IMG/VR virus record: IMGVR_UViG_3300033273_000025
DNA length: 40,882 nucleotides
Direction: 5' to 3' (one strand)
From: a virus
The position numbers and the translations under genes are program-made. Below the pieces are notes generated by a model. That model did no database searches, was not told the origin of the DNA, and saw nothing but the letters and a program-made list of their open reading frames with translations. This document shows positions 11,041 through 40,882 of this stretch, in pieces (position 1 is the stretch's first letter; each line of letters starts with the position of its first letter).

Positions 11041-13680
11041 ATGGCTAAGGCTTCATTTTATGGCAATCGTGGCGTCACTCCTAGTAACCCGGACGTTGAC
11101 CCAATCGAACCAAATAACATCAACGCGATTGAGGACAGTAAGAACGCCGCCGCACTAAGCGAGGCCAACGCAGAGTCACACAGAGATGCAGCGGAACAGT
11201 TCGCAACTAACGCATCATTCGCTCAATCAGCAGCAGAAGCAGCACAGTCCGCTGCGGAAACTGCAAAAGTATCAGCACAGTCGCATAAGGAAGAGGCGGC
11301 AACATCTGCATCCGTTGCATCCATCCACGCAACTACAGCCACTAACAAGGCCGCTGAAGCCGCGACGAGTGCATCAGACGCAGCATCCTCTGCAACCGGC
11401 GCACAAGGTTCGGCAACTCTTGCCAACACTGATCGTATTGCAGCAGGTGCATCCGCACTGGCAGCCGAAACATCACGTGTAGCAGCAGAGGCCGCAGAGA
11501 CAGCCGCAGAGACAGCCCAGACAGCCGCAGAGACAGCCGAAACAAACGCGGCTACCTCTGCCTCAAACGCAGCGACAAGCGAGTCCAATGCGGCCTCTAG
11601 CGCGTCTGCGGCATCATCTTCTGCAACTACCTCTTCTACAAAAGCAGGGGATGCTGCAACCAGCGCAGCTAACGCCGCAACTAGCGAGACTAACGCAGCC
11701 GCAAGTGCAACAGCCGCTTCGGGTAGTGAAACCGCAGCAGCCGCAAGCGCGACAGCAGCATCAGGCAGTGCCACAGCCGCCGCAAGTTCTGCCACAGCCG
11801 CCGCTGCGAGTGCGCAAGGTATTGCAACAGCACAGACTGCCTCTGAGACAGCCCAGGCAGCAGCAGAGACAGCACAGGCAGCAGCAGAGACAGCAGAGAC
11901 AAATGCTGGTACTTCTGAAACCAATGCGTCCGCAAGTGCTACGGCAGCCGCCGCAAGTGCAACATCTGCATCCACAAGTGCCGGTACTGCGACTACAAAA
12001 GCAGGTGAGGCCGGTACAAGTGCAACCTTGGCAGCATCAAGTGCATCAAGTGCAGCAGCAAGTGCAACATCTGCATCTGGTCATGCAACCAATGCAGCAA
12101 GTAGTGCATCTGATGCAGCCTCAAGCGCGACAGCAGCGGCAGCATCTCAAGTGGCAGCAGCCCAGAGTGCAGCATCAGCAGCCAACACATACGATCTGTT
12201 TGACGATAGATACTTGGGTTCCAAGTCTTCTGATCCGACAGTAGATAACGATGGGAACGCCGTAGTCCAAGGTAGCCTCTACTTTAACACCACAGCAAAC
12301 GAAATGCGTGTTTATGATGGGGCAGGGTGGATTGCAGCCTCGTCAGCAGGGGGTGCCTCACTACTTGAGTATTTCTTCACGGCTACAGCAAACCAGACGA
12401 CTTTCTCAGGTACGGACTCTGAGGGTAACACACTGGGATACACGATAGACAACATCCTCGTTGTTCTTAACGGTGTTGTCCTTGACTCCACCGCCGACTT
12501 CACTGCAACAGATGGTTCATCTATCGTAATGACAACGGCGGCAGCAGCCGGTGACGAAGTACATGTCATTGCTTTCAAGGCGTTCACTACTGCGGACATG
12601 GTGTCCAAGACTAACGGTGGTATCTTCCACGGTAACGTGGACTTCTCCAATGGCATCGACGTCACAGGTAACATCACGGTCACTGGAACAGTAGACGGAC
12701 GTGACATTGCTGTAGACGGTTCAAAGTTAGATGGTGTTGAGGCAAACGCAGATGTCACTGACAATGCTAATGTCACTTCTGTTCTATCAGGCTTCAGTTC
12801 AACAACATCCTTCACCTCTTCTGACCTTATCCCTGTTTACGACAGTTCGACAAACACATGGGTCAAAGGTACAATCGCCAATGCAGCACTTCAGGGTCCA
12901 GTAGGACCACAGGGTCCACAAGGTCCGGCAGGTGCAGACGGTGCGGTTGGCGCAGACGGCGCAGACGGTGCTCAGGGTCCAGTCGGGCCTCAAGGTCCAG
13001 CGGGTCCGCAAGGCCCAGCAGGTCCGAAAGGTGACACTGGCGACACTGGTCCAGCGGGTGCTACAGGTCCACAAGGTCCACAGGGTTTGACAGGCGCGAC
13101 TGGTGCTACTGGTCCACAAGGTCCGCAGGGTGCTACCGGTCCCCAAGGTGCTACCGGTCCAGCCGGTACAGACGCGAGTTTGCCTTCCGGTGTCATCGTC
13201 ATGTGGTCCGGAAGTAATGCTTCAATACCTTCTGGTTGGTTACTGTGCAACGGCTCTAATGGAACGCCAGATTTACGAGACAGGTTCGTCGTAGGCTCAG
13301 GCAGTTCTTACGCAACAGGCAACACAGGTGGTGCAGCAAGTGTGACACTTACAGCATCTCAAATGCCCTCGCATACGCATAGTTTCAGCGGAACTACGAG
13401 CACAAAGTCTTTGACTGGTACGTTTGTGATGATGGACGACAATACTTCAGATTACCTGTGCCGCATCAAGTCAGCCTCGGGTGTATTTAGTACAACCAAT
13501 ACAACAGCAAGACACATTAACTCACAGGGTGGTGTTGCGTACACAAACCAGAAGAACCAGATGAATTTCGACGCTTCGCACAACCACACATTCAGTGGGA
13601 CGACTGGTTCAGCAGGTAGTAACTCTGCGCACGAAAACCGACCACCTTATTATGCACTTGCTTACATCATGAAATCGTAA
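11041..13680 (+). CDS. Tail fibre protein: Ala/Ser/Thr-rich repeat rod, collagen-like repeats, and a C-terminal tail-collar-type domain.
   Basis: GAGGA RBS. About 380 aa of A/S/T/E repeats. Conserved [19 protein letters not shown]...LYFNTT...MRVYDG..W. 30 Gly-X-Y triplets. C-terminal GVIVMWSGS...[24 protein letters not shown]...MPSHTH is the tail-collar motif. Confidence 0.85.
12895..13164 (+). repeat. Collagen-like Gly-X-Y array: 30 uninterrupted triplets inside the fibre gene.
   Basis: [27 protein letters not shown]...GATGPAG was counted by hand. The first ~80 nt are similar to the start of the array in the next gene. Confidence 0.9.
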
Positions 13681-13691
13681 GGACATCTAGC

Positions 13692-14492
13692 ATGGCAAAC
13701 TCACGCGCATGGAAGTTCGCTAAACTTCTACGAAGTGACGGACAGATCAAAGAGGACAAACTAACCTCCTCCATAAACAATCTTGGAACCATCACCAGTG
13801 TAAGCGGAAGTGACGATAAGATCGTCATCCGTGATGCTACAGATGGTTCTATGAAACTTGCGTCTATCTCTGACGCAGCACTACAGGGACCAGTTGGGCC
13901 GCAAGGCCCAGCCGGACCCGCCGGTGCAGATGGTGTGATTGGCGCAGACGGTGCGGACGGTCCTCAAGGTCCACAGGGTCCAGCGGGTCCACAGGGTCCA
14001 CAGGGTGATACCGGTCCACAGGGTCCGATTGGGAACACTGGTCCTCAAGGTCCACAGGGTGCCACTGGTCCTCAAGGACCAGCGGGTGACGATGGTGCCA
14101 CTGGTCCTCAAGGTCCACAGGGTGCTACTGGTCCTCAAGGTCCACAGGGTGACGATGGTGCTACTGGTCCTCAAGGTCCACAGGGACCAACTGGGAACAC
14201 CGGTCCTCAAGGTCCACAAGGTAACACCGGTCCTCAAGGTCCAGCCGGACCGACAGGTGCTACCGGTGCTACAGGTGCTACTGGCCCACAAGGTCCAGCC
14301 GGGACTTTTAGCGGCGACTTCAACGGTGAAATCACAAACACCAGTGGCAAGCCTTTCTGGGAAAACTCGAATACCGTAAGTTCTAGTTACACAATTACGA
14401 ACAACTACAATGCAATGTCTGCGGGACCGATCACTGTTAATAGTGGCGTGTCTGTGACTATCAATGATGGTGAAGTTTGGACGGTTGTCTAA
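13692..14492 (+). CDS. Collagen-repeat fibre protein.
   Basis: AAGGA RBS. 46 uninterrupted Gly-X-Y triplets. The C-terminus ...[27 protein letters not shown] is typical of small fibre proteins. Confidence 0.8.
13887..14300 (+). repeat. Collagen-like Gly-X-Y array of 46 triplets, with nucleotide-level tandem repeats.
   Basis: The string ggtcctcaaggtcca recurs at least 8 times. Units such as actggtcctcaaggtccacagggt are tandemly reiterated. Confidence 0.9.
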
Positions 14493-21583: not shown

Positions 21584-21824
21584 TAGGTTTCTTTCCCTCA
21601 AGTTCATTGATCCGAAACTCGCAGTATCGAATGACTTTTTTCAGATCGGTGATTTCAGAAAGTTCGAGTGACTTGTCGTCGTATCTCTTGGACCCAGCGC
21701 GGCTTGCGTATTTAATTATGTTTCCGCGCCAGAACTCGAACTTGTTAGCCATGATGAACACGATTGGTTCAATCGCCCATTGTGTGTAATGCTCAGGGCT
21801 TTCAATTAGGTCTTTCTCAGTCAA
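21576..21824 (-). CDS. DUF3310-like small protein.
   Basis: The pattern SPEHYTQWAIEPIVFI...FWRGNIIKYASRAG...DLKKVIRYCEF matches the family. TTG start after AAGGAG, overlapping the upstream stop. Confidence 0.6.
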   Translation of the reverse strand: MTEKDLIESPEHYTQWAIEPIVFIMANKFEFWRGNIIKYASRAGSKRYDDKSLELSEITDLKKVIRYCEFRINELEGKKPNE

Positions 21825-22248
21825 GGCCGGCCCACTCCTTCAACTTCTCATGTTGATGTGGGTTCATGGTGTACTGCTTGTACCCATTCTGCCCTTTCAT
21901 GAAGTGCTCAGTGATGATCTCGAAGTCTTGTAGACGTCTGAATTGATCACGAATGGTGGACCGTGGAATCCCTAGCTCAATCAAAGGCTGTCCTGAGAAG
22001 ACGCTGTGCGGCGGGTTCTGAGATAGCCATGTATTGATCTTCATACGGCTACCGCTTTGCTGTGTCCCCGCGTACACCTCTGGCGTTGATCGGTGGCGCA
22101 ACGGCTGTCTTTCGCCGTGCAGATAGTTACGATCTATTCGCCTTTCGTGCTCTTCCATTTCTTGACGGATGACGTCTTGAATTTCATCTGGATAACAAGG
22201 AAGTCGGAAGGCACTTTTAACTATGTTTTTCTGTTGATCTGGTGTCAT
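21817..22248 (-). CDS. Hypothetical protein with a C-terminal helix-turn-helix-like segment.
   Basis: The ATG at 22248 overlaps the exonuclease stop (ATGA). The segment LIELGIPRSTIRDQFRRLQDFEII looks HTH-like. The ORF-track start 22443 lies inside the exonuclease gene. Confidence 0.55.
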   Translation of the reverse strand: MTPDQQKNIVKSAFRLPCYPDEIQDVIRQEMEEHERRIDRNYLHGERQPLRHRSTPEVYAGTQQSGSRMKINTWLSQNPPHSVFSGQPLIELGIPRSTIRDQFRRLQDFEIITEHFMKGQNGYKQYTMNPHQHEKLKEWAGLD

Positions 22249-24985: not shown

Positions 24986-25335
24986 CGATTGTCGCCAGAG
25001 CCACCAATGACCCCACGCTCTTTGCGCGAGTTTAGTTTCTCAATGTTCATGGCTGCGATTGAGTTTAGCGAGATGTCCAAGTCACGCGCGAGGGCTGCAA
25101 TGTACCAAAGCACATCACCAAGTTCCGCACCAATGTCCGCACGTTGCTTGTCGCTCAACAGGACTTTTCCATCGAAACGAATGTTGTCGTCGCGGATCAA
25201 CTTCTTGATCTTGCCACCGACTTCACCCGCTTCATTGGCTAGGCCAAGGGCAGGGTAGATCACCTTCCACTTATAGATTGCTGTGTGGGCTGTATCGGCC
25301 TGATAGTCGTTCATTGTGTACGAGTGATTAACCAT
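24982..25335 (-). CDS. mazG: MazG-like nucleoside triphosphate pyrophosphohydrolase.
   Basis: LGLANEAGEVGGKIKKLIRD ... ELGDVLWYIAALA ... NIEKLNSRKERG. Confidence 0.8.
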   Translation of the reverse strand: MVNHSYTMNDYQADTAHTAIYKWKVIYPALGLANEAGEVGGKIKKLIRDDNIRFDGKVLLSDKQRADIGAELGDVLWYIAALARDLDISLNSIAAMNIEKLNSRKERGVIGGSGDNR

Positions 25336-25624
25336 GTTTACGTGTCGCCTTTTTTAGATAATCTGTGTGCTGCCAAATTGACTGAGTGACGCCGTGTGGT
25401 CCTGTGCGTTGACCGATCTTGCTGATCAGTCCCATCTTGACCAACTTTTGAAACTTACTGGTCACGGTTCCATAGGCGTAATGCGGTAGTTCCCGACAAA
25501 GTTCCGCTGCAATAATCCCCGAACTACCCGCCGCGTGGATTGCGTCGAGTATCGCACTTTCTGCGTTAGTTAAGAGTTCTGGTGTCCATGTGATGTCTAT
25601 GAACTGCATCTGTGTCTGCTGCAT
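25328..25624 (-). CDS. Winged-helix DNA-binding protein (MarR-like fold suspected).
   Basis: 98 aa. AILDAIHAAGSSGIIAAELCRELPHYAYGTVTSKFQKLVKMGLISKIG. Confidence 0.55.
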   Translation of the reverse strand: MQQTQMQFIDITWTPELLTNAESAILDAIHAAGSSGIIAAELCRELPHYAYGTVTSKFQKLVKMGLISKIGQRTGPHGVTQSIWQHTDYLKKATRKHG

Positions 25625-27260: not shown

Positions 27261-27292
27261 ACAATAGAAAAAGGGGCGACTTTCGCCGCCCC
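27261..27292 (-). terminator. Hairpin plus U-run terminator between the endonuclease and primase genes.
   Basis: The minus strand reads GGGGCGGC-GAAA-GTCGCCCC followed by TTTTTCTATTGTG. Confidence 0.6.
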
Positions 27293-27321
27293 TCGCTCAC
27301 CTTTGATGTCAAAATACTAAC

Positions 27322-27786
27322 TCAAGTTTTTTTTGAACTAGAGTTCGTATTTCGTAGGCACTCGGCTATCCAGTCATCAGGAATGACCTTGTGTGCCCAT
27401 TTGAAACCATGCTTCTCGCAATAATCTGCGTAGGTAGTTTTGCTACCTTTGTAGAGTTTGGATCGCGCGTTGCTAAACACAAATCGAATGTCGATGTCTG
27501 GGTGCTGCTTCTTGATCAGAAGGTGCTTGGCGCGGTCTTGGACTGCCCAAATACCTTTCGACTCAAGATACCAAAATCCATCCTTTTTCGGCAGTTTGAA
27601 GTCGGGAGTGTACTTCGCTTGCCGCGCTGGGATTTCGTAATGGATACGATCAGTCTCGTACAATACTTCGATCTCATTAGACCGTAGTTGTTCCGCTATG
27701 GTTTCTTCGAGGCCTGACCGATAACCCGCAGCCAAGCCTCTATAGAACGCTTTGTTTCTTCTTGGGAGGTTAGAAGTCAAAGTCAT
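27322..27786 (-). CDS. Endonuclease I / Holliday-junction resolvase (T7 gp3-like).
   Basis: FRSGLEE..., YTPDF, ESKGIW, DRAKHLLIKKQHPDIDIRFVFSNARSKLYKGSKTTYADYCEKHGFKW is collinear with T7 gp3. Confidence 0.9.
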   Translation of the reverse strand: MTLTSNLPRRNKAFYRGLAAGYRSGLEETIAEQLRSNEIEVLYETDRIHYEIPARQAKYTPDFKLPKKDGFWYLESKGIWAVQDRAKHLLIKKQHPDIDIRFVFSNARSKLYKGSKTTYADYCEKHGFKWAHKVIPDDWIAECLRNTNSSSKKT

Positions 27787-28321
27787 CCTTTGTTACGTCA
27801 GTCTTCACACTGTCTGACGTAACATCCATTGCCGCATCGACAGTGAAACCACCGCCTTCGATTGCGTCAAATCCTTCGTCGTCCCCACCGTACGTGGACA
27901 CCTCTACCACCTGAATTTTGTCAAGCATGAGGCCCACCCCTGATGAACCAGAAACGGTGTACAGGTTGAGGATACCACCGCCCCGAAGTTGACTACCGCC
28001 ACCAATGTTCGGCAGCGCACTTGGGGTGATGACTTGCCCTTGGGTGTCGTAGAACTTGGGTTCATACTTCGACTGCATCTTGAACGAAACTTCGCCAGTC
28101 TCGTCGTCCACAGTGTAGGGCATACGAATGTTCTTTTTGTTGCCGAACTCTTCGGCTGCTGCATCCTTGATCATTTTGACCAAGGGTGTCGCATCGTCTT
28201 TGGACATCACGATTTCCGTTTTGTACTTCGGATTGTTGGTGTCAAAGGCTGTGTCTGGTTTGTTCAAGTGCGGGTACTTCGCACGTCCGACAGGTGAGAT
28301 AAACTTGATTGGTTTTGCCAT
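27770..28321 (-). CDS. Single-stranded DNA-binding protein (T7 gp2.5-like).
   Basis: Start ATG 28321 (MAKPIKFISPVGRAKYPHLNKPD) after AAGGAA. Acidic C-terminus ending DDFDF, as in gp2.5. The ORF-track start 28414 lies in the terminator region. Confidence 0.85.
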   Translation of the reverse strand: MAKPIKFISPVGRAKYPHLNKPDTAFDTNNPKYKTEIVMSKDDATPLVKMIKDAAAEEFGNKKNIRMPYTVDDETGEVSFKMQSKYEPKFYDTQGQVITPSALPNIGGGSQLRGGGILNLYTVSGSSGVGLMLDKIQVVEVSTYGGDDEGFDAIEGGGFTVDAAMDVTSDSVKTDVTKDDFDF

Positions 28322-28340
28322 GCTGTAGTCGTTCCTTTGT

Positions 28341-28376
28341 AGCAAATAGAAAAAGGGGTGATCCGAAGACCACCCC
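28341..28376 (-). terminator. Hairpin plus U-run terminator downstream of the RNAP gene. Its position is analogous to the T7 early terminator.
   Basis: The minus strand reads GGGGTGGTC-TTCG-GATCACCCC followed by TTTTTCTATTTGC. Confidence 0.65.
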
Positions 28377-28395
28377 AAGGACAGGAAGGAAATGC

Positions 28396-28438
28396 GAAGA
28401 ACAGCGGGAAACAATAGGGAGGAAAACCGCTGTTCTTC
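28396..28438 (-). other. Perfect 12-bp stem-loop that starts at the predicted +1 of promoter A, giving a 5' mRNA hairpin.
   Basis: Minus strand GAAGAACAGCGG (28438-28427) pairs with CCGCTGTTCTTC (28407-28396). The loop is 19 nt. Confidence 0.7.
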
Positions 28439-28457
28439 AATAGGGGGACAGAAGTCA
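28435..28457 (-). promoter_or_regulatory. Phage RNAP promoter, copy A, reading leftward. Its first 3 nt are the RNAP stop codon.
   Basis: The minus strand TGACTTCTGTCCCCCTATTGAAG is 23/23 identical to copy B. The CCCTATTG core resembles T7 CACTATAG. Predicted +1 is G at 28438. Confidence 0.7.
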
Positions 28458-31085
28458 ACTGAAGCAGAATTGAGACATTCTGATTAAGTCGAGGTCCAGT
28501 GTCCCCTTGGTTGGAATACACTTGTCGAACTCATGCGCTGGGTTCGATAGTTGCTGTCTGATTTCATCCTCGAACTTCTGAAACACACACTCGCCAGAGT
28601 ACATGTCGATGAAGGTTTCGCGGACTGTATCAAACAAGTCCCAACAGTCACCACTTACAGCGAAACTGTCGTGGATCATGAAGAAGTCCTCGGCTTGGTT
28701 AGCCTCAAGCATTTTCACGATGGTGAGGTGCATATGTGCTGCATCACAACCATGAACCAGATTGGGGCAGATGCCATTTGTGGACTTCTTAACGTCACTT
28801 GCGTCCAACTCTTCGCGTAGTGACATTTTGGTACGGCTGCGTTCCTTGATTGCACGGTCATACAGGAAAATTTTAATCTCTTTGCGTCGAGTTTTCTTGT
28901 AGTCTTGGACAATCGGGAACCCACTGGGTGAGGTCCAACGGATCGGCTTGTTTTCACGCGCCAACGCTTCCGTGACATGTTGCAAGTATTCCATAGATTC
29001 CGCGACTTTTGGGAGGGTGTCTTGGATGCTGTCGTAGGCTACTTGCGCCATGAATTGTGCCGCCTCAAACTGGTCGTCTTCGGTGGCCCCAAGCGGATGC
29101 TCAGGTAGTTCTCCATAGGCGACTTGACGTTGCAGAGGTTTCATAAAGTCATCCATGAATTGTGTGGTCATCCCGACAGGCTTTGAGGAGTAACCATAGG
29201 TCATGGTCGCTCGTTTCAAAGTGCTGCGGGTGACACCGTGGTCTAGCCACGATTTCGATAGTTGGGCAATAGTTCTACCGCCCTCACGCTTACTGTTGAA
29301 TGGTGTGTGGTCGTCCAACTTAGACTGAAGTACCTCCACGACACGTTCCGCATTGCTACGGTAAATGTCTGCCATTTCCTCAGAGGGAACCAAGTTGACC
29401 AAAGCACCTTCGCGGCTGCTTCGGTTGATGCCAGAGTAATGCTGCACACCACTGTTAGTTCCATCCAATGAAAGCGGAATGTAACACACGAAGTTGTCGC
29501 CCTCTTCGATCAACCGCTTCAACTCGAACACGGCTGCCAAGAACTGGAACGGCTTGTCGGCTTTGGACCACTTGTCAAAGGTTGACCGAAAGTCCTCGGC
29601 TACCTCCAACAACCATTCCAAGTTATCGTCCACCCACTGCGCCCTAGAATCCAACGGCTGCTTGGACACCTTGTCAAAGTCACCCACATTCGCCAGATGA
29701 ACCTTGAGCCAATAGGCATTGCACCCCTCGACTCTGTAGCCTCTGTAGAACGTAAACAACGCCTTGATGTGGTCGTCGCGGTGGTAGTTGAAACTTGGGA
29801 TGAAATACATGCGCCCTCGGAAGTCGAGATTGGCAGGTAGATAAAACTTGTCGTGAACCACCAGTTCGATTGCGGTCTGTAAGTCCTGACGCATGACCTC
29901 GGCTGCACCTTTGACTTGGGATTCAAGTTTCTGGTGTTTCCGAATGTCGGCTTTCAGTTCTGCCACTTTCTCACGCGGTAACTCTTGCCAGTTCTCGGGT
30001 AGACGTGGACGCGGTGGGATAAACGCAGTCGGAAACTTACCGAATTGCTTTTGCTCGTCCCAACACCACTGCACCGCCTCCAGAACAGGCCCATTGATCG
30101 CCAGAGGAGTCGCTTGAAGCGCGTTTAGTGCCTTGACGTAGGTAGGGGTGCCAGATGTGAATTGGTGCCTCACAGCGGCTTCCTGTTCGGCTGTAGCCTG
30201 ACGAACCAACTTGACCGTCGAGGCCAGAAAGTCGTCATGATAGCAACCTGTGTCAAAGTCCACCCACGGCTTAGGCTCCGCAAGCATTGGCTTGTAGATC
30301 GGGGCCATCCAAGAAAGGTAACGCTCGGAACGCTCAAGTTGTGCTTGGGCCTCCTCAGTGAACGTGAGTTTCAGGCTTGTGTTGTTCTTGCCCTCGGTGA
30401 TCAGGTTCTTGTCGAACACCTCCGAGAACTCAAGAACGGTAGACAAGATTGGGGCCGCAAGTTTTGCTCTGCGTTCCTTCAATGCCTGACGTTCTGCACG
30501 TGTCTTTGCGGTGCCAAAGTTAAGGCTTCGGGTGCCGTTCTTCTCCGCGATAATCCGCAGTGCCTTTAGGCGGTACGCAGGGCTTGTGTGCGCCTCCGTC
30601 ACTTGGTCGATTAGCCGCTTGTTGGTGTTCAGTGGCTTGGGTCGCTCAAGTCCTAATTCCTTGGCCTGTTCAACGGCTGCCTTGTGCTTGGCCTTGTCGT
30701 CAAACAAGAGGTCATTCTTGAGCAACTCTTTTTCCACCAGTTCACCAATGTTCTGAGTGACTTGAGTGACTGAGTGCTCCTTCAACACCCCATTAAATGA
30801 ACACAAAAGACCAATGTAAGCCAAAGTGCTTTCGTCAACCTGAGACAGATCGTCAACCCATGCAGGGTGTCTGCCTTTGGTGGCTTTAGCTTCCTTTAGT
30901 GCCTTTAGTATTCCTTGGGAAACCTTGGGCAAGGCTTCTTTAAGTTTGTTGAAGTGGTGGGGGCTGTCTGTGGCCTCAGTCTGCTCACTGAACTTTTGAT
31001 GCCATTTGTCTTTGCCTTGGGTACGCATAGTGCGCTCATAGGCTGCATTAGTGTCTCTAGTGGCTACTCTAGTATCTAATGTCAT
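28455..31085 (-). CDS. Single-subunit DNA-dependent RNA polymerase (T7 gp1-like).
   Basis: 876 aa. DGTNSGVQHYSG, RSTLKRATMTYGYSS, MIHDSFAV, and a C-terminus ...SQFCFS (T7 ends FAFA). Confidence 0.95.
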   Translation of the reverse strand: MTLDTRVATRDTNAAYERTMRTQGKDKWHQKFSEQTEATDSPHHFNKLKEALPKVSQGILKALKEAKATKGRHPAWVDDLSQVDESTLAYIGLLCSFNGVLKEHSVTQVTQNIGELVEKELLKNDLLFDDKAKHKAAVEQAKELGLERPKPLNTNKRLIDQVTEAHTSPAYRLKALRIIAEKNGTRSLNFGTAKTRAERQALKERRAKLAAPILSTVLEFSEVFDKNLITEGKNNTSLKLTFTEEAQAQLERSERYLSWMAPIYKPMLAEPKPWVDFDTGCYHDDFLASTVKLVRQATAEQEAAVRHQFTSGTPTYVKALNALQATPLAINGPVLEAVQWCWDEQKQFGKFPTAFIPPRPRLPENWQELPREKVAELKADIRKHQKLESQVKGAAEVMRQDLQTAIELVVHDKFYLPANLDFRGRMYFIPSFNYHRDDHIKALFTFYRGYRVEGCNAYWLKVHLANVGDFDKVSKQPLDSRAQWVDDNLEWLLEVAEDFRSTFDKWSKADKPFQFLAAVFELKRLIEEGDNFVCYIPLSLDGTNSGVQHYSGINRSSREGALVNLVPSEEMADIYRSNAERVVEVLQSKLDDHTPFNSKREGGRTIAQLSKSWLDHGVTRSTLKRATMTYGYSSKPVGMTTQFMDDFMKPLQRQVAYGELPEHPLGATEDDQFEAAQFMAQVAYDSIQDTLPKVAESMEYLQHVTEALARENKPIRWTSPSGFPIVQDYKKTRRKEIKIFLYDRAIKERSRTKMSLREELDASDVKKSTNGICPNLVHGCDAAHMHLTIVKMLEANQAEDFFMIHDSFAVSGDCWDLFDTVRETFIDMYSGECVFQKFEDEIRQQLSNPAHEFDKCIPTKGTLDLDLIRMSQFCFS

Positions 31086-31107
31086 ATTAACTGCTCTTTC
31101 CTTAGTC

Positions 31108-31130
31108 CTTCAATAGGGGGACAGAAGTCA
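31108..31130 (-). promoter_or_regulatory. Phage RNAP promoter, copy B, 26 nt upstream of the RNAP start codon.
   Basis: The minus strand reads TGACTTCTGTCCCCCTATTGAAG. Predicted +1 is G at 31111, followed by GAAGGACTAAGGAAAGAGCAGTTAATATG. Confidence 0.7.
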
Positions 31131-31153
31131 GAGCGGTCACCATATGACCCCTT

Positions 31154-31197
31154 TGTGCCCTGCCTCAATGTGCCCCTTCGGGTGCTGAAATGTGCCC
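31154..31197. repeat. Three direct copies of WWTGTGCCC (GGGCACAWW on the coding strand) upstream of promoter B.
   Basis: TGTGCCC occurs at 31154-31160, 31169-31175 and 31191-31197, spaced 15 and 22 nt apart, in the int-RNAP intergenic region. Confidence 0.6.
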
Positions 31198-31210
31198 TCT
31201 TGTGGGGCGA

Positions 31211-32038
31211 TTAGTTTGCCATTTGCGCTGCTAGTGCCTGTAGTGCGCTGGGCTTCGCTTTGATATATTTGCGCGTTGTCTTTTCGCTCTTGTGGCCCAG
31301 TAGAAGGCCAATCACTGCGGTGTTTGCTTTGAGGTCATTCGCCATGACTGTCGCCGCTGTGTGTCTGAGCGTGTGAAACACATATCGCTTGTCATTCCGC
31401 AGAATGTCTTTGCGCATGGCTCCCCATGTTCGGTAGAATCGCGTGTGCTCAAAATACCCACGACAATCGAAAGATAAAGCCTCCAAAGCAGAGTATGCCC
31501 TAGCATTCACTGGAACGAATCTCTCAGTGCCGTTTTTAGTCTTGGGTAGGTGTATCCATATATCGCCGTTCTCGTCCTCAGTGACGCTGTGAGGGGCTAT
31601 CTGGCATATCTCACCAAGCCTCATGCCTGTCTGATGTCCGAGAACCACAAAATGCTGCATCCACGGCTCGGAACTATGCTTGAACCAATCCTCCATCGCG
31701 GTCAGTTGCGCCTTGGTGAAATACAAGGGCCGCTGCTCATGCTCAACACGCTTCCAAGTGAACTGCGGCGCGTGTGTTATCACCTCCTCCTTTACCGCAT
31801 GTTTGAAAACTTTGGTCAGCATGGCTGCGTAGTGGTTCACGGTGTTGTCACTCAGTCCTTGCGCGGACAGATGGTCAAAGAACGCATGAATGTCCGAGGG
31901 CTTGAAGTCTCCTATATGGCGTTGGGCATGTTCCCCAAAGTCATTGAACTTTTGTGCCTTGGTGACTGACCGTTTCAGGTGGTCCCCATGCCATAGGCGG
32001 TGGGCTTCGTTGGTGACAAATGTTGCAAAGGTAATCAT
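31211..32038 (-). CDS. int: Tyrosine integrase.
   Basis: Start ATG 32038 after AAGGAGG, with an ATGA overlap on the upstream stop. Motifs TGMRLGE, FHTLRHTAAT, LLGH and TRKYIK. The ORF-track N-terminal extension to 32242 overlaps the upstream gene. Confidence 0.9.
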   Translation of the reverse strand: MITFATFVTNEAHRLWHGDHLKRSVTKAQKFNDFGEHAQRHIGDFKPSDIHAFFDHLSAQGLSDNTVNHYAAMLTKVFKHAVKEEVITHAPQFTWKRVEHEQRPLYFTKAQLTAMEDWFKHSSEPWMQHFVVLGHQTGMRLGEICQIAPHSVTEDENGDIWIHLPKTKNGTERFVPVNARAYSALEALSFDCRGYFEHTRFYRTWGAMRKDILRNDKRYVFHTLRHTAATVMANDLKANTAVIGLLLGHKSEKTTRKYIKAKPSALQALAAQMAN

Positions 32039-32355
32039 TGCGCTGCCTCCTTGTCGGCTAATTCCTCCACGCGGTTCATGATCACCGCCATTGCGACACC
32101 CAAATCCTTGAGTGTCGCCTGTTCTGCCATTTCGCGGACTGACTGCCACGGATGCGGCCTTGTGCTGCTGCTGTAATGCGTTTGCGGCTGTGGTGCGTGG
32201 ACTGGCTGCGCGTGGCCTCCCACGCGGTGTTCGTTTAGCCACTCAAGCAACGCTGCCTTGTCGGTTGGTACGTCAACCAGATTGACTTCGCCGTGGTCAC
32301 GTTTGGCCTCGGCCTGTGTGCCTACCCAGTGTCCGTTTTGTGTGTAAAGTTTCAT
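32035..32355 (-). CDS. Hypothetical protein, translationally coupled to int.
   Basis: ATG 32355 (MKLYTQNGHWVG) after GGGGAG. Its stop overlaps the int start. Confidence 0.6.
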   Translation of the reverse strand: MKLYTQNGHWVGTQAEAKRDHGEVNLVDVPTDKAALLEWLNEHRVGGHAQPVHAPQPQTHYSSSTRPHPWQSVREMAEQATLKDLGVAMAVIMNRVEELADKEAAQ

Positions 32356-32359
32356 GTCT

Positions 32360-32737
32360 TTAGCTCCCCAAGAAAAAGCGGACTGCGGGTGTGTCGCCCT
32401 CAAAGGCGGGTTCAACGGATTCAATGAAGGTGTGCCAATCGCCTGTACGGTTCAGGAACTCAGCGACAGCCTCCTTACACGATTGGACATCGACACGCCC
32501 ATCGCGCACCTTGACCTTGTGCTCCATGATTACCTTGGACCAGTGCTCGTCGAAGCGGCCCTCGTCGTCACGTGTCAGGCGTAAGTGTGGTTGCACAAGC
32601 CAATATTCACCATCTGGCAACTCTGTAATTGTGTCGTGGCCTACGCGGTCCTCAGTTTCCCAAGTCTCGTATGGTCCGTCTGTGTTCTTGTAGATTGACC
32701 AAGTGATACGGTCTGCGGTGTAGTTTTCGTTAGTCAT
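32360..32737 (-). CDS. Hypothetical protein.
   Basis: ATG 32737 (MTNENYTADRITW) after GGAGAC. Confidence 0.6.
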   Translation of the reverse strand: MTNENYTADRITWSIYKNTDGPYETWETEDRVGHDTITELPDGEYWLVQPHLRLTRDDEGRFDEHWSKVIMEHKVKVRDGRVDVQSCKEAVAEFLNRTGDWHTFIESVEPAFEGDTPAVRFFLGS

Positions 32738-32862
32738 TCGGTAGTCTCCGAGATTAGAAGGGGGGTTCGTCTGTGGGCTTCTTAGGCTTCCACACAACAT
32801 CCACCCCATGCATGATAAGAATGAAGGCCTCCAAGGTGTGCCCCCAGAGGCTCTGGGGTTCG

Positions 32863-32958
32863 TTAGTAGATTGAGCCAAAGACAAGGCCGCCGTACAGCA
32901 TCAGGAACAGGCAGATAACGCCCACTAGATCGCCAAGGATTTCACGCCAGTTCCACAT
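32863..32958 (-). CDS. Possible 31-aa membrane peptide, below the ORF-track cutoff.
   Basis: TGATG stop/start overlap with the upstream ORF. Sequence MWNWREILGDLVGVICLFLMLYGGLVFGSIY. A 7-bp hairpin (CCCCAGA/TCTGGGG) follows. Confidence 0.4.
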   Translation of the reverse strand: MWNWREILGDLVGVICLFLMLYGGLVFGSIY

Positions 32959-33410
32959 CAGACTGCCTCCCGCTGCTGTGACATTTCGAGTAGCCGCTTG
33001 TGGTTATTTACGCGGGTGTTGTAGCTAATCCGCGCTTGCTCAAGGCTGTTAGGGTAAAGGCCATAGTAGCACCCACCGTCTTGCGTGTTGTGGTCCCACA
33101 CAACGAACTGTCCGTTCCACTCACACAGGACTGTCCACAGGTGCTTGTCGCCTTCGTGGGGGAACTGTGTTGCCGCAATTACGGTTGCACCGTTGCTAGG
33201 CTCTAGTCCGTGCAGTGGTTGGCCTAGTTCCGCGTAGTTCTTCATTAGACCCGCGTGGGTTCCGTCACTCTTCAGGATGTGCTTGCGCTGCCCGAAGTAT
33301 TCTTGGCCCTCTTCGACGCACTCGGCGCGGGTGAACGCCCCAAAGACGTCCTCCCACTTGTTGGTGTCCTTATTGAAAACGAAAAGTGTGTAATAGACTG
33401 ATGCTGACAT
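32958..33410 (-). CDS. Hypothetical early protein.
   Basis: 150-aa ORF, starting 2 nt after the upstream stop. Confidence 0.65.
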   Translation of the reverse strand: MSASVYYTLFVFNKDTNKWEDVFGAFTRAECVEEGQEYFGQRKHILKSDGTHAGLMKNYAELGQPLHGLEPSNGATVIAATQFPHEGDKHLWTVLCEWNGQFVVWDHNTQDGGCYYGLYPNSLEQARISYNTRVNNHKRLLEMSQQREAV

Positions 33411-33412
33411 GA

Positions 33413-33706
33413 TTACACCTCCTCTGCGATACGTTGTGCGGCATAGATGCCCGCAAGCATCGAACGCATTGCGTTGTAGGTGTTACGCTTGGTGTCATAG
33501 TGGGTGATGGTGTGGACACCGCCGCCACTGTTGGCGATACGCTCAAGGCGTACACCGCCATATGCACCGCCTAGGGTGTAAACACCCGCGACTGACTGAA
33601 ACTTACCGTTCTCGTCACGTGTATAAGGTTCGGTGGGTTGGCCTAGTGCCTCGTTAATCTGACGAACTACGAACTCTAGGTCTGCATTTGTGATACGTTT
33701 TGTCAT
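33413..33706 (-). CDS. Hypothetical protein, the first gene of the leftward block.
   Basis: GGAGA lies 7 nt upstream of the ATG. 97 aa. Confidence 0.65.
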   Translation of the reverse strand: MTKRITNADLEFVVRQINEALGQPTEPYTRDENGKFQSVAGVYTLGGAYGGVRLERIANSGGGVHTITHYDTKRNTYNAMRSMLAGIYAAQRIAEEV

Positions 33707-33757
33707 TCGACTGTCTCCGTTGTGTTGCGGAGGTATTCAGTCGGAAGTCCTTTGAAG

Positions 33758-33816
33758 TGGTGGGCGACCTAGGAATCGAACCTAGCGTGCGTCTCCGCGA
33801 GGGAGTTACAGTCCCC
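33758..33816 (-). other. 3' fragment of a tRNA-Tyr(GUA)-like sequence, a candidate attP core. It has anticodon arm, long variable arm, T arm, acceptor 3' strand and CCA, but no D arm or 5' acceptor.
   Basis: The minus strand reads GGGGA-CTGTAAC-TCCCT CGCGGAGACGCACG CTAGG-TTCGATT-CCTAG GTCGCCC A CCA. Upstream sequence cannot form a D arm or pair with GTCGCCC. Confidence 0.65.
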
Positions 33817-33866
33817 TCGAACCTGAGTGCCACCATATCGCAGAAGCCCCGACAGCCTCCGTACGA

Positions 33867-33898
33867 ATCATATGCGCACAACGGAAATCCCCTGTCAA
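33867..33898 (-). promoter_or_regulatory. Possible host-type promoter reading leftward.
   Basis: The minus strand has TTGACA (33898-33893) preceded by a T-rich stretch. -10 candidates are CATATG (18-nt spacer) or TATGAT (20-nt spacer). None is canonical. Confidence 0.3.
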
Positions 33899-33926
33899 AC
33901 AAAAAGTGTCCAGGTGGTACACAAAA

Positions 33927-33949
33927 ATGACTTATGTCCCCCTATAGAG
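33927..33949 (+). promoter_or_regulatory. Phage RNAP promoter, copy C, rightward, heading the structural block.
   Basis: TGACTTATGTCCCCCTATAGAGA matches copies A and B at 19 of 23 positions. CCCTATAG then AGAGG parallels T7 CACTATAG then GGAGA. Predicted +1 is G at 33946. Confidence 0.7.
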
Positions 33950-33973
33950 AGGAAGCGGACACCACCGCCGCCG

Positions 33974-34008
33974 CAGTGACTAGAGACACTAGAGTCACTG
34001 AGAGTGAC
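33974..34008. repeat. Cluster of GTGAC/GTCAC half-sites and short tandem repeats (CACTAGAG-like) in the 5' leader of the rightward unit.
   Basis: cAGTGACTAGAG-ACACTAGAG-TCACTGAGAG-TGAC. AGTGACT (33975-33981) is the inverted complement of AGTCACT (33993-33999). Confidence 0.6.
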
Positions 34009-34060
34009 AAGAACATCCTCCTCTGCCTCACACCAAGAAAAGAGAAACAAGAGACACCAT

Positions 34061-34076
34061 AGTCACCTTAGTGACT
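34061..34076. other. Palindrome built from the same half-site.
   Basis: AGTCAC-CTTA-GTGACT. Confidence 0.55.
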
Positions 34077-34160
34077 GTGGTGGGTGTGGTTGACCCCAGT
34101 TCTACCCGACAAGAACTTAGGCGGTCCCACGCCTCCTATAGATACATGAGAGAGCCAAAG

Positions 34161-34370
34161 ATGCTGACGATACTAAGAAAGACTGTACGCACCCTAGAAA
34201 GCCTTGTGTTGCTTCTGGCGGCGTATGAATACCATTGCAGGGCCAACCGTGCTGTTAGCCAACTCAGGCTCCACAGTGACGCAGAACTCAAGGACATTGG
34301 TCTGCACAAGGGCATGATCTATCAGGCAGCGCACAAGGATTGCGGATGGTGTAACCGTGGTGACGGTTAG
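34161..34370 (+). CDS. DUF1127-like small protein.
   Basis: ATG 34161 after GAGAGAG. Sequence MLTILRKTVRTLESL...RANRAVSQLRLHSDAELKDIGLHKGMIYQAAHKD. The core R-x-x-x-x-x-L-x-x-L-S-D-x-x-L-x-D-I-G-x-x-(R/K) is the DUF1127 signature. The ORF-track GTG start 34071 lies in the palindrome. Confidence 0.65.
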   Translation: MLTILRKTVRTLESLVLLLAAYEYHCRANRAVSQLRLHSDAELKDIGLHKGMIYQAAHKDCGWCNRGDG

Positions 34371-40634: not shown

Positions 40635-40882
40635 ATGGCTGAATACACCATTGAAGACTATAAACGTGGAGCGAGAGCCGCACACGCCGCTGGTGACATA
40701 GAGGCTGCAAAACGTCTTATCGCAGCGGCTAGGGCACTCGAAGGTACTCAGTCAACACCCTCACAACCAGACGAAAGCCTAGGCGGTGCCCTTGGCTACG
40801 GTGTGGACAATGCCCAAAAGATGCTTGGTAAAGGTATCCAAGGTGTCGGTGAACTTACCGGCATGGAGGGTGTTGAGCAGTA
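40635..40882 (+). CDS. N-terminal part of the junction-spanning large internal virion protein. It continues at base 2 and gives 1124 aa in the circular molecule.
   Basis: ATG at 40635 is preceded by GAGGTAAGAG and is open to the window end. Base 40743 equals base 2 and is in the same codon phase as the ORF listed 62..3268. The N-terminus reads MAEYTIEDYKRGARAAHAAGDIEAAKRL. Confidence 0.8.
   Translation, partial: MAEYTIEDYKRGARAAHAAGDIEAAKRLIAAARALEGTQSTPSQPDESLGGALGYGVDNAQKMLGKGIQGVGELTGMEGVEQ
40742..40882. repeat. Terminal exact overlap, copy 2 (identical to 1-141).
   Basis: Same 141-nt string as the window start. Confidence 0.95.

Follow-up and report, generated by a model that had tools for sequence, protein, structure and literature searches.

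The window, IMG/VR virus record IMGVR_UViG_3300033273_000025 (the whole stretch of 40,882 nucleotides that was analysed), derives from an uncultured, integrase-carrying marine T7-like phage and contains three copies of an asymmetric element, designated phiA, phiB and phiC, which are very probably promoters of the T7-type RNA polymerase (RNAP) that the phage itself encodes. The three elements of 23-25 nt probably constitute the complete promoter set of the phage RNAP, with an autogene loop at phiB; that phiB gives functional positive autoregulation is fairly likely when taken by itself, and is a reasonable inference. The features that enter into this interpretation are:

31106 to 31130, minus strand: phiB, putative promoter directly upstream of the RNAP gene, containing the exact 23-mer and scoring 39.7 bits with a position weight matrix (PWM)

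28433 to 28457, minus strand: phiA, putative promoter whose first bases are the RNAP stop codon (TGA, 28457-28455), containing the exact 23-mer, predicted +1 at 28438

33928 to 33952, plus strand: phiC, putative promoter facing the structural and lysis arm, predicted +1 at 33947, PWM score 30.8 bits

28455 to 31085, minus strand: gene for the single-subunit, T7-type RNAP of 876 aa (Pfam RNA_pol, E = 1e-76, and RPOL_N)

31211 to 32242, minus strand: tyrosine integrase gene int (Pfam Phage_integrase, E = 1e-16; PHROG integrase, E = 2e-40), the true start of which is probably downstream of 32242

27770 to 28321, minus strand: gene for a gp2.5-like single-stranded DNA-binding protein (SSB), the first gene downstream of phiA (PHROG 112, E = 1.5e-28)

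The 23-mer TGACTTCTGTCCCCCTATTGAAG occurs exactly on the minus strand at 28435-28457 and 31108-31130, as the initial annotation of the window had stated, and had no match in 100 shuffles (0/100); when the comparison is extended, the identity of phiA and phiB reaches 25 of 26 nt. The third copy (TGACTTATGTCCCCCTATAGAGA, plus strand) matches the other two at 19 of 23 positions, which had also been noted correctly, but its coordinates (33927-33949) had been placed one nucleotide too low: the copy occupies 33928-33950, and its predicted +1 is 33947, not 33946. A PWM built from the window phage and its close relatives found these three sites only in a genome-wide scan (31-40 bits), the next best site scoring 10.5 bits, at the level of shuffled sequence (16 bits or less), and detected no fourth site in the circular genome of ~40.7 kb.

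The consensus of the three copies, TGACTT(C/A)TGTCCCCCTAT(T/A) followed from +1 by GA(A/G)(G/A), has the shape of T7 and SP6 promoters, being asymmetric and ~23 bp long (-17 to +6), with CTAT(A/T) at -5 to -1, hence TATA-like at -4 to -1, and a purine start (GAAG or GAGA). All three copies are intergenic and co-oriented with the genes downstream of them, phiC standing at the head of the structural arm, and the same genome encodes the cognate single-subunit RNAP, which is matched by T7 RNAP chains of the PDB over residues 232-875 (E = 1e-77). The predicted +1 of phiB is the G at 31111, 26 nt ahead of the start codon of the RNAP gene (ATG, 31085), the distance given in the initial annotation, and the 26-nt leader contains an AAGGA Shine-Dalgarno sequence. 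The positions are also syntenic with known phage promoters: phiA corresponds to phi2 of phage LUZ100 and phi1.1A of T7, and phiB to LUZ100 phi1.

Relatives were collected by an IMG/VR scan with the RNAP (124 relatives, 80 loci fetched), the presence of an RNAP being the selection criterion for every fetched locus. Of the 70 loci with RNAP identity of at least 45%, 68 have a phiA-type element at the RNAP stop codon, the exceptions (L067-L068) having non-matching sequence there, and a phiB equivalent lies 15-256 nt upstream of the RNAP gene in 26/26 phiB-testable loci (RNAP identity at least 56%); the absence of the 23-mer from relatives with the same RNAP, which the initial annotation had named as grounds for abandoning its reading, was thus not encountered. 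The third, divergent copy is kept in relatives wherever the contig reaches far enough. The element at the stop codon drifts in sequence by clade (..CTGTCCCCCTATTGAAG, ..CAGGTACCCTATTGAAG, ..CTGTCCACCTACCAGAGG, ..CTACAACCCTCCTAGAAG, ..ATGTCACCCTTCAGAAG), giving clade-specific promoter cores (TGTCCCCC, GGTACCC, TGTCCACC, TACAACCC and TGTCACCC), and phiA and phiB differ at identical positions when loci are compared pairwise (two positions for L001 versus L003, three for L022 versus L026, and one for L001 versus L004). Mean promoter identity is 88% within one genome versus 58% between promoter groups, and the specificity-loop region of the RNAP (aligned with T7 residues 739-770) differs between exactly these promoter clades. 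At the level of sequence comparison, promoter and polymerase co-vary, a relationship that is correlative only. Conserved position, co-variation with the RNAP clade and concerted change of the copies together indicate that the elements behave as phage-RNAP promoters, in agreement with their initial description as T7-type promoters.

Dispersed copies that evolve in concert would also be expected of a repressor and its operators, and the 23-mers might in principle be operators of a regulator, or sites of recombination or replication, instead of promoters. This is very unlikely, given that the elements are asymmetric and always co-oriented with downstream genes, that they contain a T7-like CTATA/G junction, that their positions match the mapped phi1 and phi2 of LUZ100 as well as phi1.1A of T7, and that a 5' hairpin, retained by most of the clades examined, starts at the predicted +1 of phiA. 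Furthermore, the RNAP is common to all fetched loci (by design), whereas the flanking SSB and endonuclease I, where contigs reach them, are not sequence-specific regulators.

Of the two copies that bracket the RNAP gene, phiB repeats even the TGA that in phiA is the RNAP stop codon, the relatives having ATA, TTA or CAC at that place, which suggests that the 100% identity of phiA and phiB is due to recent conversion between the two copies. A short sequence shared by two of the predicted transcripts is the 13-mer ACTAGAGACACTA, found exactly at 31049-31061 (minus strand), which is +51 to +63 of the predicted phiB transcript and within RNAP codons 9-13, and at 33979-33991 (plus strand), which is +33 to +45 of the phiC leader. 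With up to two mismatches it has 10 copies in the window versus 0.94 expected, 9 of the 10 on the sense strand; the phiC leaders of relatives carry ACTATAG-type motifs.

The proposed circuit begins with host RNA polymerase, which would make the first phage RNAP by reading along the early operon, past int and on into the RNAP gene; the early unit would end at a conserved intrinsic terminator after phiA (28347-28376), much like TE of T7. The new polymerase would then raise the amount of its own mRNA through phiB (a positive-feedback 'autogene'), and would simultaneously fire phiA, with read-through of the terminators at 28347-28376 and 27265-27294 to reach the T7-like DNA-metabolism and replication genes, and phiC, from which ~25 kb of structural and lysis genes would be transcribed on the opposite strand. 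The RNA features downstream of the RNAP gene are:

28396 to 28438, minus strand: 5'-terminal hairpin of the predicted phiA transcript, with a 12-bp stem from +1 and a CU-rich loop containing CCUCCC

28347 to 28376, minus strand: intrinsic terminator (UUCG tetraloop hairpin followed by UUUUUCUAUU) between phiA and the SSB gene

27265 to 27294, minus strand: second terminator, with the same tail as the first (CCCCTTTTTCTATT), between the endonuclease I and primase/helicase genes

The stem of the phiA hairpin is a perfect 12 bp, its first base being the predicted +1, and the fold of 28340-28438 has a free energy of -36.7 kcal/mol (z = -7.6); of the other clades examined, most have an equivalent phiA hairpin with a different stem sequence, and the terminator at 28347-28376 is conserved with compensatory changes (17 relatives). 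The stretch from the RNAP stop codon to the SSB gene (28347-28438) is in fact a conserved module of promoter, 5' hairpin, CU-rich linker and strong terminator (L001-L066), of which the stems covary between clades. This module could serve as an attenuator, as an early terminator, or as the source of a ~90-nt RNA made by the phage polymerase. The idea that the ~90-nt phiA unit is a small, CU-rich RNA pairing with the leader of the RNAP gene was considered and rejected, that leader ranking only 5th among 38 gene leaders in RNAduplex.

The initial annotation presented this layout as a contrast to T7, but the arrangement recurs in other integrase-bearing T7-like phages (LUZ100, CRP-125 and HTVC168P). 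For LUZ100, ONT-cappable-seq mapped the promoter phi1 directly upstream of the RNAP gene, after MarR, int and the terminator T4, and host-RNAP read-through followed by RNAP self-amplification was proposed by the authors, with MarR repression in lysogeny (PMC10134795); the positive-feedback logic is that proposed here for the window phage. The gene order in the LUZ100 record (OP329100.1) is int - T4 - phi1 - RNAP - phi2/phi3 - SSB - T5 - endonuclease I, with MarR - attP - int upstream, attP being the phage attachment site; that of the window is int - repeats - phiB - RNAP - phiA - terminator - SSB - endonuclease I - terminator. Both have a promoter directly before the RNAP gene, int upstream of it in the same orientation, a terminator after endonuclease I, and a tRNA-derived attP in the early region. 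Where a LUZ100-type cassette has repeated sites for its regulator, the window has three copies of GGGCACA upstream of phiB, a possible counterpart that is conserved in no relative. The two differ in several respects: MarR is beside int in LUZ100 but was not found in the window, and T4 separates int from phi1 in LUZ100, whereas no minus-strand terminator is called in 31131-31210 of the window (relatives of the L009/L015 clade have a hairpin and T-run overlapping phiB). The promoter sequences of the two phages are unrelated (ATTACCACACAG.. in LUZ100 versus CTGTCCCCCTAT.. in the window), LUZ100 is colinear with T7-type structural genes whereas the window consists of two divergent arms with a non-T7 portal/capsid module, and the start sites of LUZ100 were measured whereas those of the window are predicted.

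Promoter-like repeats bracketing the RNAP gene were also detected in two isolated marine phages. The roseophage CRP-125 contains an exact 19-mer, TAGGTTGCACCATAGCATC, 35 nt before the RNAP start and 17 nt after the RNAP stop (L175, 3391-3409 and 5932-5950), and the pelagiphage HTVC168P contains a 17-nt sequence, AA(G/A)GTTCCCATAGTAGA, 16/17 identical, at the same two places (L176, 2632-2648 and 5140-5156). These phages resemble the window phage in the bracketing of the RNAP gene by promoter-like 17-19-mers with a CCATAG core and in a DNA polymerase 44-46% identical, but their RNAPs are at most ~30% identical to that of the window, and CRP-125 has MarR - int - terminator ahead of its promoter. 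The genome paper of CRP-125 does not mention promoters, and the predicted promoter pairs of CRP-125 and HTVC168P come from the present analysis. Promoters before and after the RNAP gene are common in this part of the T7 supergroup, though not universal.

In T7 itself, Dunn and Studier are said to have described, in 1983, a promoter immediately downstream of gene 1 (phi1.1A/phi1.1B); phiA is the positional counterpart of phi1.1A and of LUZ100 phi2, and the elements of the window share with T7 promoters the 23-bp asymmetric form and the CTATA/G junction. In 1991, Dubendorff and Studier reportedly engineered a T7 autogene, with the T7 RNAP gene under a T7 promoter, which resembles the predicted phiB loop in being a single-subunit RNAP gene under its own promoter, hence autocatalytic, but which is artificial and needs lac repressor and lysozyme, whereas the layout of the window is natural and conserved in a whole clade. 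T7 differs from the window phage in having 17 promoters versus three, no integrase, and no strong phage promoter directly before gene 1, which is early and host-transcribed. The initial annotation was right that no phage promoter directly precedes gene 1 of T7, but it overlooked phiOL, a weak phage promoter that lies close to the E. coli A2 promoter at the left end, upstream of the whole early region (PMC6171733). The layout of the window is accordingly a known, LUZ100-type arrangement and not a departure from T7 biology, real but fairly ordinary.

What the window contributes to the catalogue of orthogonal T7-type transcription is a well-supported RNAP-promoter pair together with at least four co-varying sister pairs from relatives; such orthogonal pairs are useful for synthetic biology. 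A phage promoter before the polymerase gene is a recurrent, clade-wide design of integrase-bearing T7-like phages, present in 26 uncultured relatives, CRP-125 and HTVC168P besides LUZ100, which supports the view that self-amplifying expression of the polymerase is part of the life-cycle decision in 'temperate' T7-like phages.

Several observations weigh against the interpretation of the three elements as promoters with an autogene loop. Gene conversion could account for part of the concerted change of the copies, and initiation at 31111, 28438 and 33947 is inferred for an uncultured phage. Relatives with RNAP identity of 43-54% have no upstream copy equivalent to phiB, so the feedback loop is dispensable for this phage type; in the clade of 46-47% identity (L044-L066), a short open reading frame (ORF) and then the RNAP gene follow at ~25 nt or less after the int stop, with no phage promoter between, which implies that this phage group has seen a gain or loss of the pre-RNAP promoter. 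A scan of 28300-34200 for the sigma-70 consensus gave no match on the minus strand and no confident host-type promoter, the sole hints being a weak TTGAGG-N18-TATGGT within the repeat region between int and phiB and a TTGACA element near attP (see below). The idea of the initial annotation that an autocatalytic loop next to an integrase needs tight gating has no support beyond the analogy with LUZ100, no repressor having been found and the repeats upstream of phiB being private to this genome. Even so, with these points taken into account, the promoter and autoregulation reading of the initial annotation is judged to be largely right.

The repeats just mentioned and the features near attP that bear on their interpretation are:

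31152 to 31160, 31167 to 31175 and 31189 to 31197, minus strand: three direct repeats GGGCACAWW, between the int stop and phiB

31135 to 31149, no strand assigned: inverted repeat GGTCA-N5-TGACC between the repeats and phiB, a small hairpin in the fold, not conserved in relatives

33758 to 33816, minus strand: attP core of 59 nt, an exact match to the 3' part, from anticodon stem to CCA, of bacterial tRNA-Tyr(GTA)

33887 to 33898, minus strand: conserved TTGACAGGGGAT between phiC and attP, pointing to the early operon

The direct repeats are present as first annotated (WWTGTGCCC on the plus strand, with 15- and 22-nt spacing), their 7-mer GGGCACA cores lying at 31154-31160, 31169-31175 and 31191-31197. 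GGGCACA is not enriched genome-wide (7 copies versus 6.8 expected), yet it is the sole non-coding 7-mer with three copies inside 50 nt in the window, and just 13 of 200 shuffled genomes contained a triple of this kind, of any 7-mer. No two copies of GGGCACA lie within 60 nt in any of 81 related loci, the repeat block and its junction with phiB have no exact match in IMG/VR, and the repeats are absent from L019 (together with L161) despite an 83%-identical int and the same attP. When the int-RNAP spacers of the closest relatives are aligned, the only long conserved stretch runs from the promoter to the RNAP start codon inclusive. The repeat region shows no significant RNA structure on either strand (z of -1.1 to -1.7). 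A derivation of the repeats from inverted promoter cores was rejected: GGGGCACA differs at a single position from TGTCCCCC in reverse complement, and its PWM score is not above background. The GGGCACA triple is private to this genome and is not needed for the promoter; by analogy with LUZ100, the repeats are at best putative sites for a lineage-specific regulator.

Quite plausibly, though short of probably, the triple is a functionless product of recent slippage or duplication in a fast-evolving spacer. The part of the intergenic region that contains the repeats is its least conserved, only promoter and leader being conserved; in relatives this place is taken by another short repeat (TTGAGGCAGG / TTGAGCAG); and neither the genome-wide count of the 7-mer nor RNA folding departs from expectation. 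Against this, three exact 7-mers that extend to RGGGCACAWW within 44 nt of a 125-nt spacer are improbable by chance, the estimate being ~1e-3 analytically (any 7-mer, 125-nt spacer) and ~0.07 per genome in shuffles.

More doubtful is an operator that would gate int read-through or the firing of phiB, as has been proposed for MarR sites in LUZ100 and other temperate T7-like phages, possibly bound together with the adjacent GGTCA-N5-TGACC palindrome by a phage- or host-encoded protein. The location of the repeats, exactly between the int stop and phiB, and the uniqueness of the triple among non-coding 7-mers (13/200 shuffles) are compatible with an operator, and there are parallels in other phages: LUZ100 has two direct repeats of ACTATCCACTG in the equivalent spacer, where its authors place MarR sites, and CRP-125, which encodes a MarR protein, has a GCACCATGGTGC palindrome beside its pre-RNAP promoter. 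A candidate binding protein of 98 aa, with a weak winged-helix signal, is encoded at 25328-25624 (minus strand), one of two genes that the initial annotation took to specify helix-turn-helix proteins; its match to MarR_2 is below threshold (E = 0.001, 19.6 bits versus a cutoff of 27). An AlphaFold model of the protein from its single sequence is of low confidence (predicted local distance difference test score, pLDDT, of 58), and its best fold match in the PDB is of the winged-helix type but not significant (E = 0.02). The gene sits between those for primase/helicase and MazG, and its product diverges faster than its neighbours (46% identity to L001, versus 89% and 95% for the flanking genes). 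Against an operator bound by this protein, its closest homologue (82% identity) is in L019, which has no repeats, and its gene is in the middle operon predicted to be driven by the phage RNAP, an odd place for a repressor of lysogeny. The absence of the repeats from the 81 related loci and from IMG/VR, and of MarR or any other repressor near int, also count against an operator. For the second supposed helix-turn-helix protein (21817-22248), no DNA-binding signature was detected. Among the ORFs of 97, 150, 125 and 106 aa upstream of int, none has a regulator match in Pfam or PHROG, so that nothing equivalent to the MarR gene beside int was found there; a single-sequence AlphaFold model of the 106-aa protein is likewise of low confidence (pLDDT of 55), and a PDB sequence search with the regulator candidates returned nothing.

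The initial annotation also raised the possibility that the repeats are arm-type recombinase sites. In lambda attP, the arm sites P'1-P'3 belong to the P' arm, next to int, and three direct repeats just past the int stop resemble them superficially. The attP core of the window phage, however, is ~2.6 kb from the repeats, far outside the roughly 150 bp of a lambda-type arrangement, and the repeats are therefore not arm sites of the integrase. Furthermore, L019 and L161, with an identical 59-nt attP and an 83%-identical int, lack the repeats, and the elements that are conserved among attP-sharing relatives adjoin the real core instead. This reading, by far the least probable of those considered for the repeats, is effectively refuted.

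The attP core lies between phiC and the early operon, and has 92 exact matches in metagenomes, the identity ending at the anticodon stem. Most of the 92 are bacterial contigs with a full 84-nt tRNA-Tyr gene, usually followed by tRNA-Gly, and six are phage contigs; no integrated prophage copy was seen among the 92 tRNA-Tyr contigs. Rfam has no family in the window at gathering thresholds and none in 31000-34200 at E of 1 or less, the partial tRNA having escaped detection because it is too short for the model. The TTGACA element TTGACAGGGGAT is kept in 5/5 attP-sharing phage contigs that reach this position, and is a candidate -35 element for early transcription by host RNA polymerase, or else an Int arm site; it is followed by no consensus -10 element and was not called by the consensus scan. 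Integration at attP would leave TTGACAGGGGAT and phiC on one side, and the early operon with the RNAP gene on the other.

It is conceivable, but unlikely, that the phage has a natural RNAP autogene that dispenses with a MarR-type repressor and is gated by a lineage-specific operator or by genome topology. The operator would then be the GGGCACA triple, the ACTAGAGACACTA box common to the phiB and phiC leaders, or both. If topology were responsible, integration at tRNA-Tyr would physically separate the early operon and RNAP gene from the TTGACA element and phiC, which lie across attP from them, and phiB would be left as a bistable trigger.

The contig is a circular assembly, since bases 1-141 are an exact repeat of 40742-40882, which closes it at ~40.7 kb. 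The minus strand, from ~33706 to 19315, is a T7-like early and DNA-metabolism arm that encodes, first, small ORFs of unassigned function, the tyrosine integrase and the single-subunit RNAP, and later the gp2.5-like SSB, endonuclease I, primase/helicase, the 98-aa protein, MazG and DNA polymerase, as well as a 5'-3' exonuclease and a ribonucleotide reductase. The plus strand, from 34071 across the junction to 18560, encodes tail, terminase, portal, scaffold and capsid proteins, along with a collagen-like fibre, holin and endolysin. The RNAP is ~30% identical, and no higher, to RNAPs of isolated phages, the DNA polymerase is 44-46% identical to those of LUZ100 and of marine roseophage and pelagiphage Autographiviridae, and the portal is ~30% identical to those of non-T7 podoviruses; this uncultured lineage has a mosaic genome, with a T7-like early and replication arm opposite a structural arm that resembles those of non-T7 podoviruses. 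An exact-protein index contains neither the RNAP nor the endonuclease I protein, and a scan of genome contigs with the RNAP gave a single match, on a 6.7-kb contig of an alphaproteobacterial metagenome-assembled genome. Nearly all of the remaining clusters of short repeats in the window are in the tail-fibre genes (11440-14300, plus strand), which contain long Ala/Thr-rich 21-nt repeats and collagen-like GXY 9-nt repeats.

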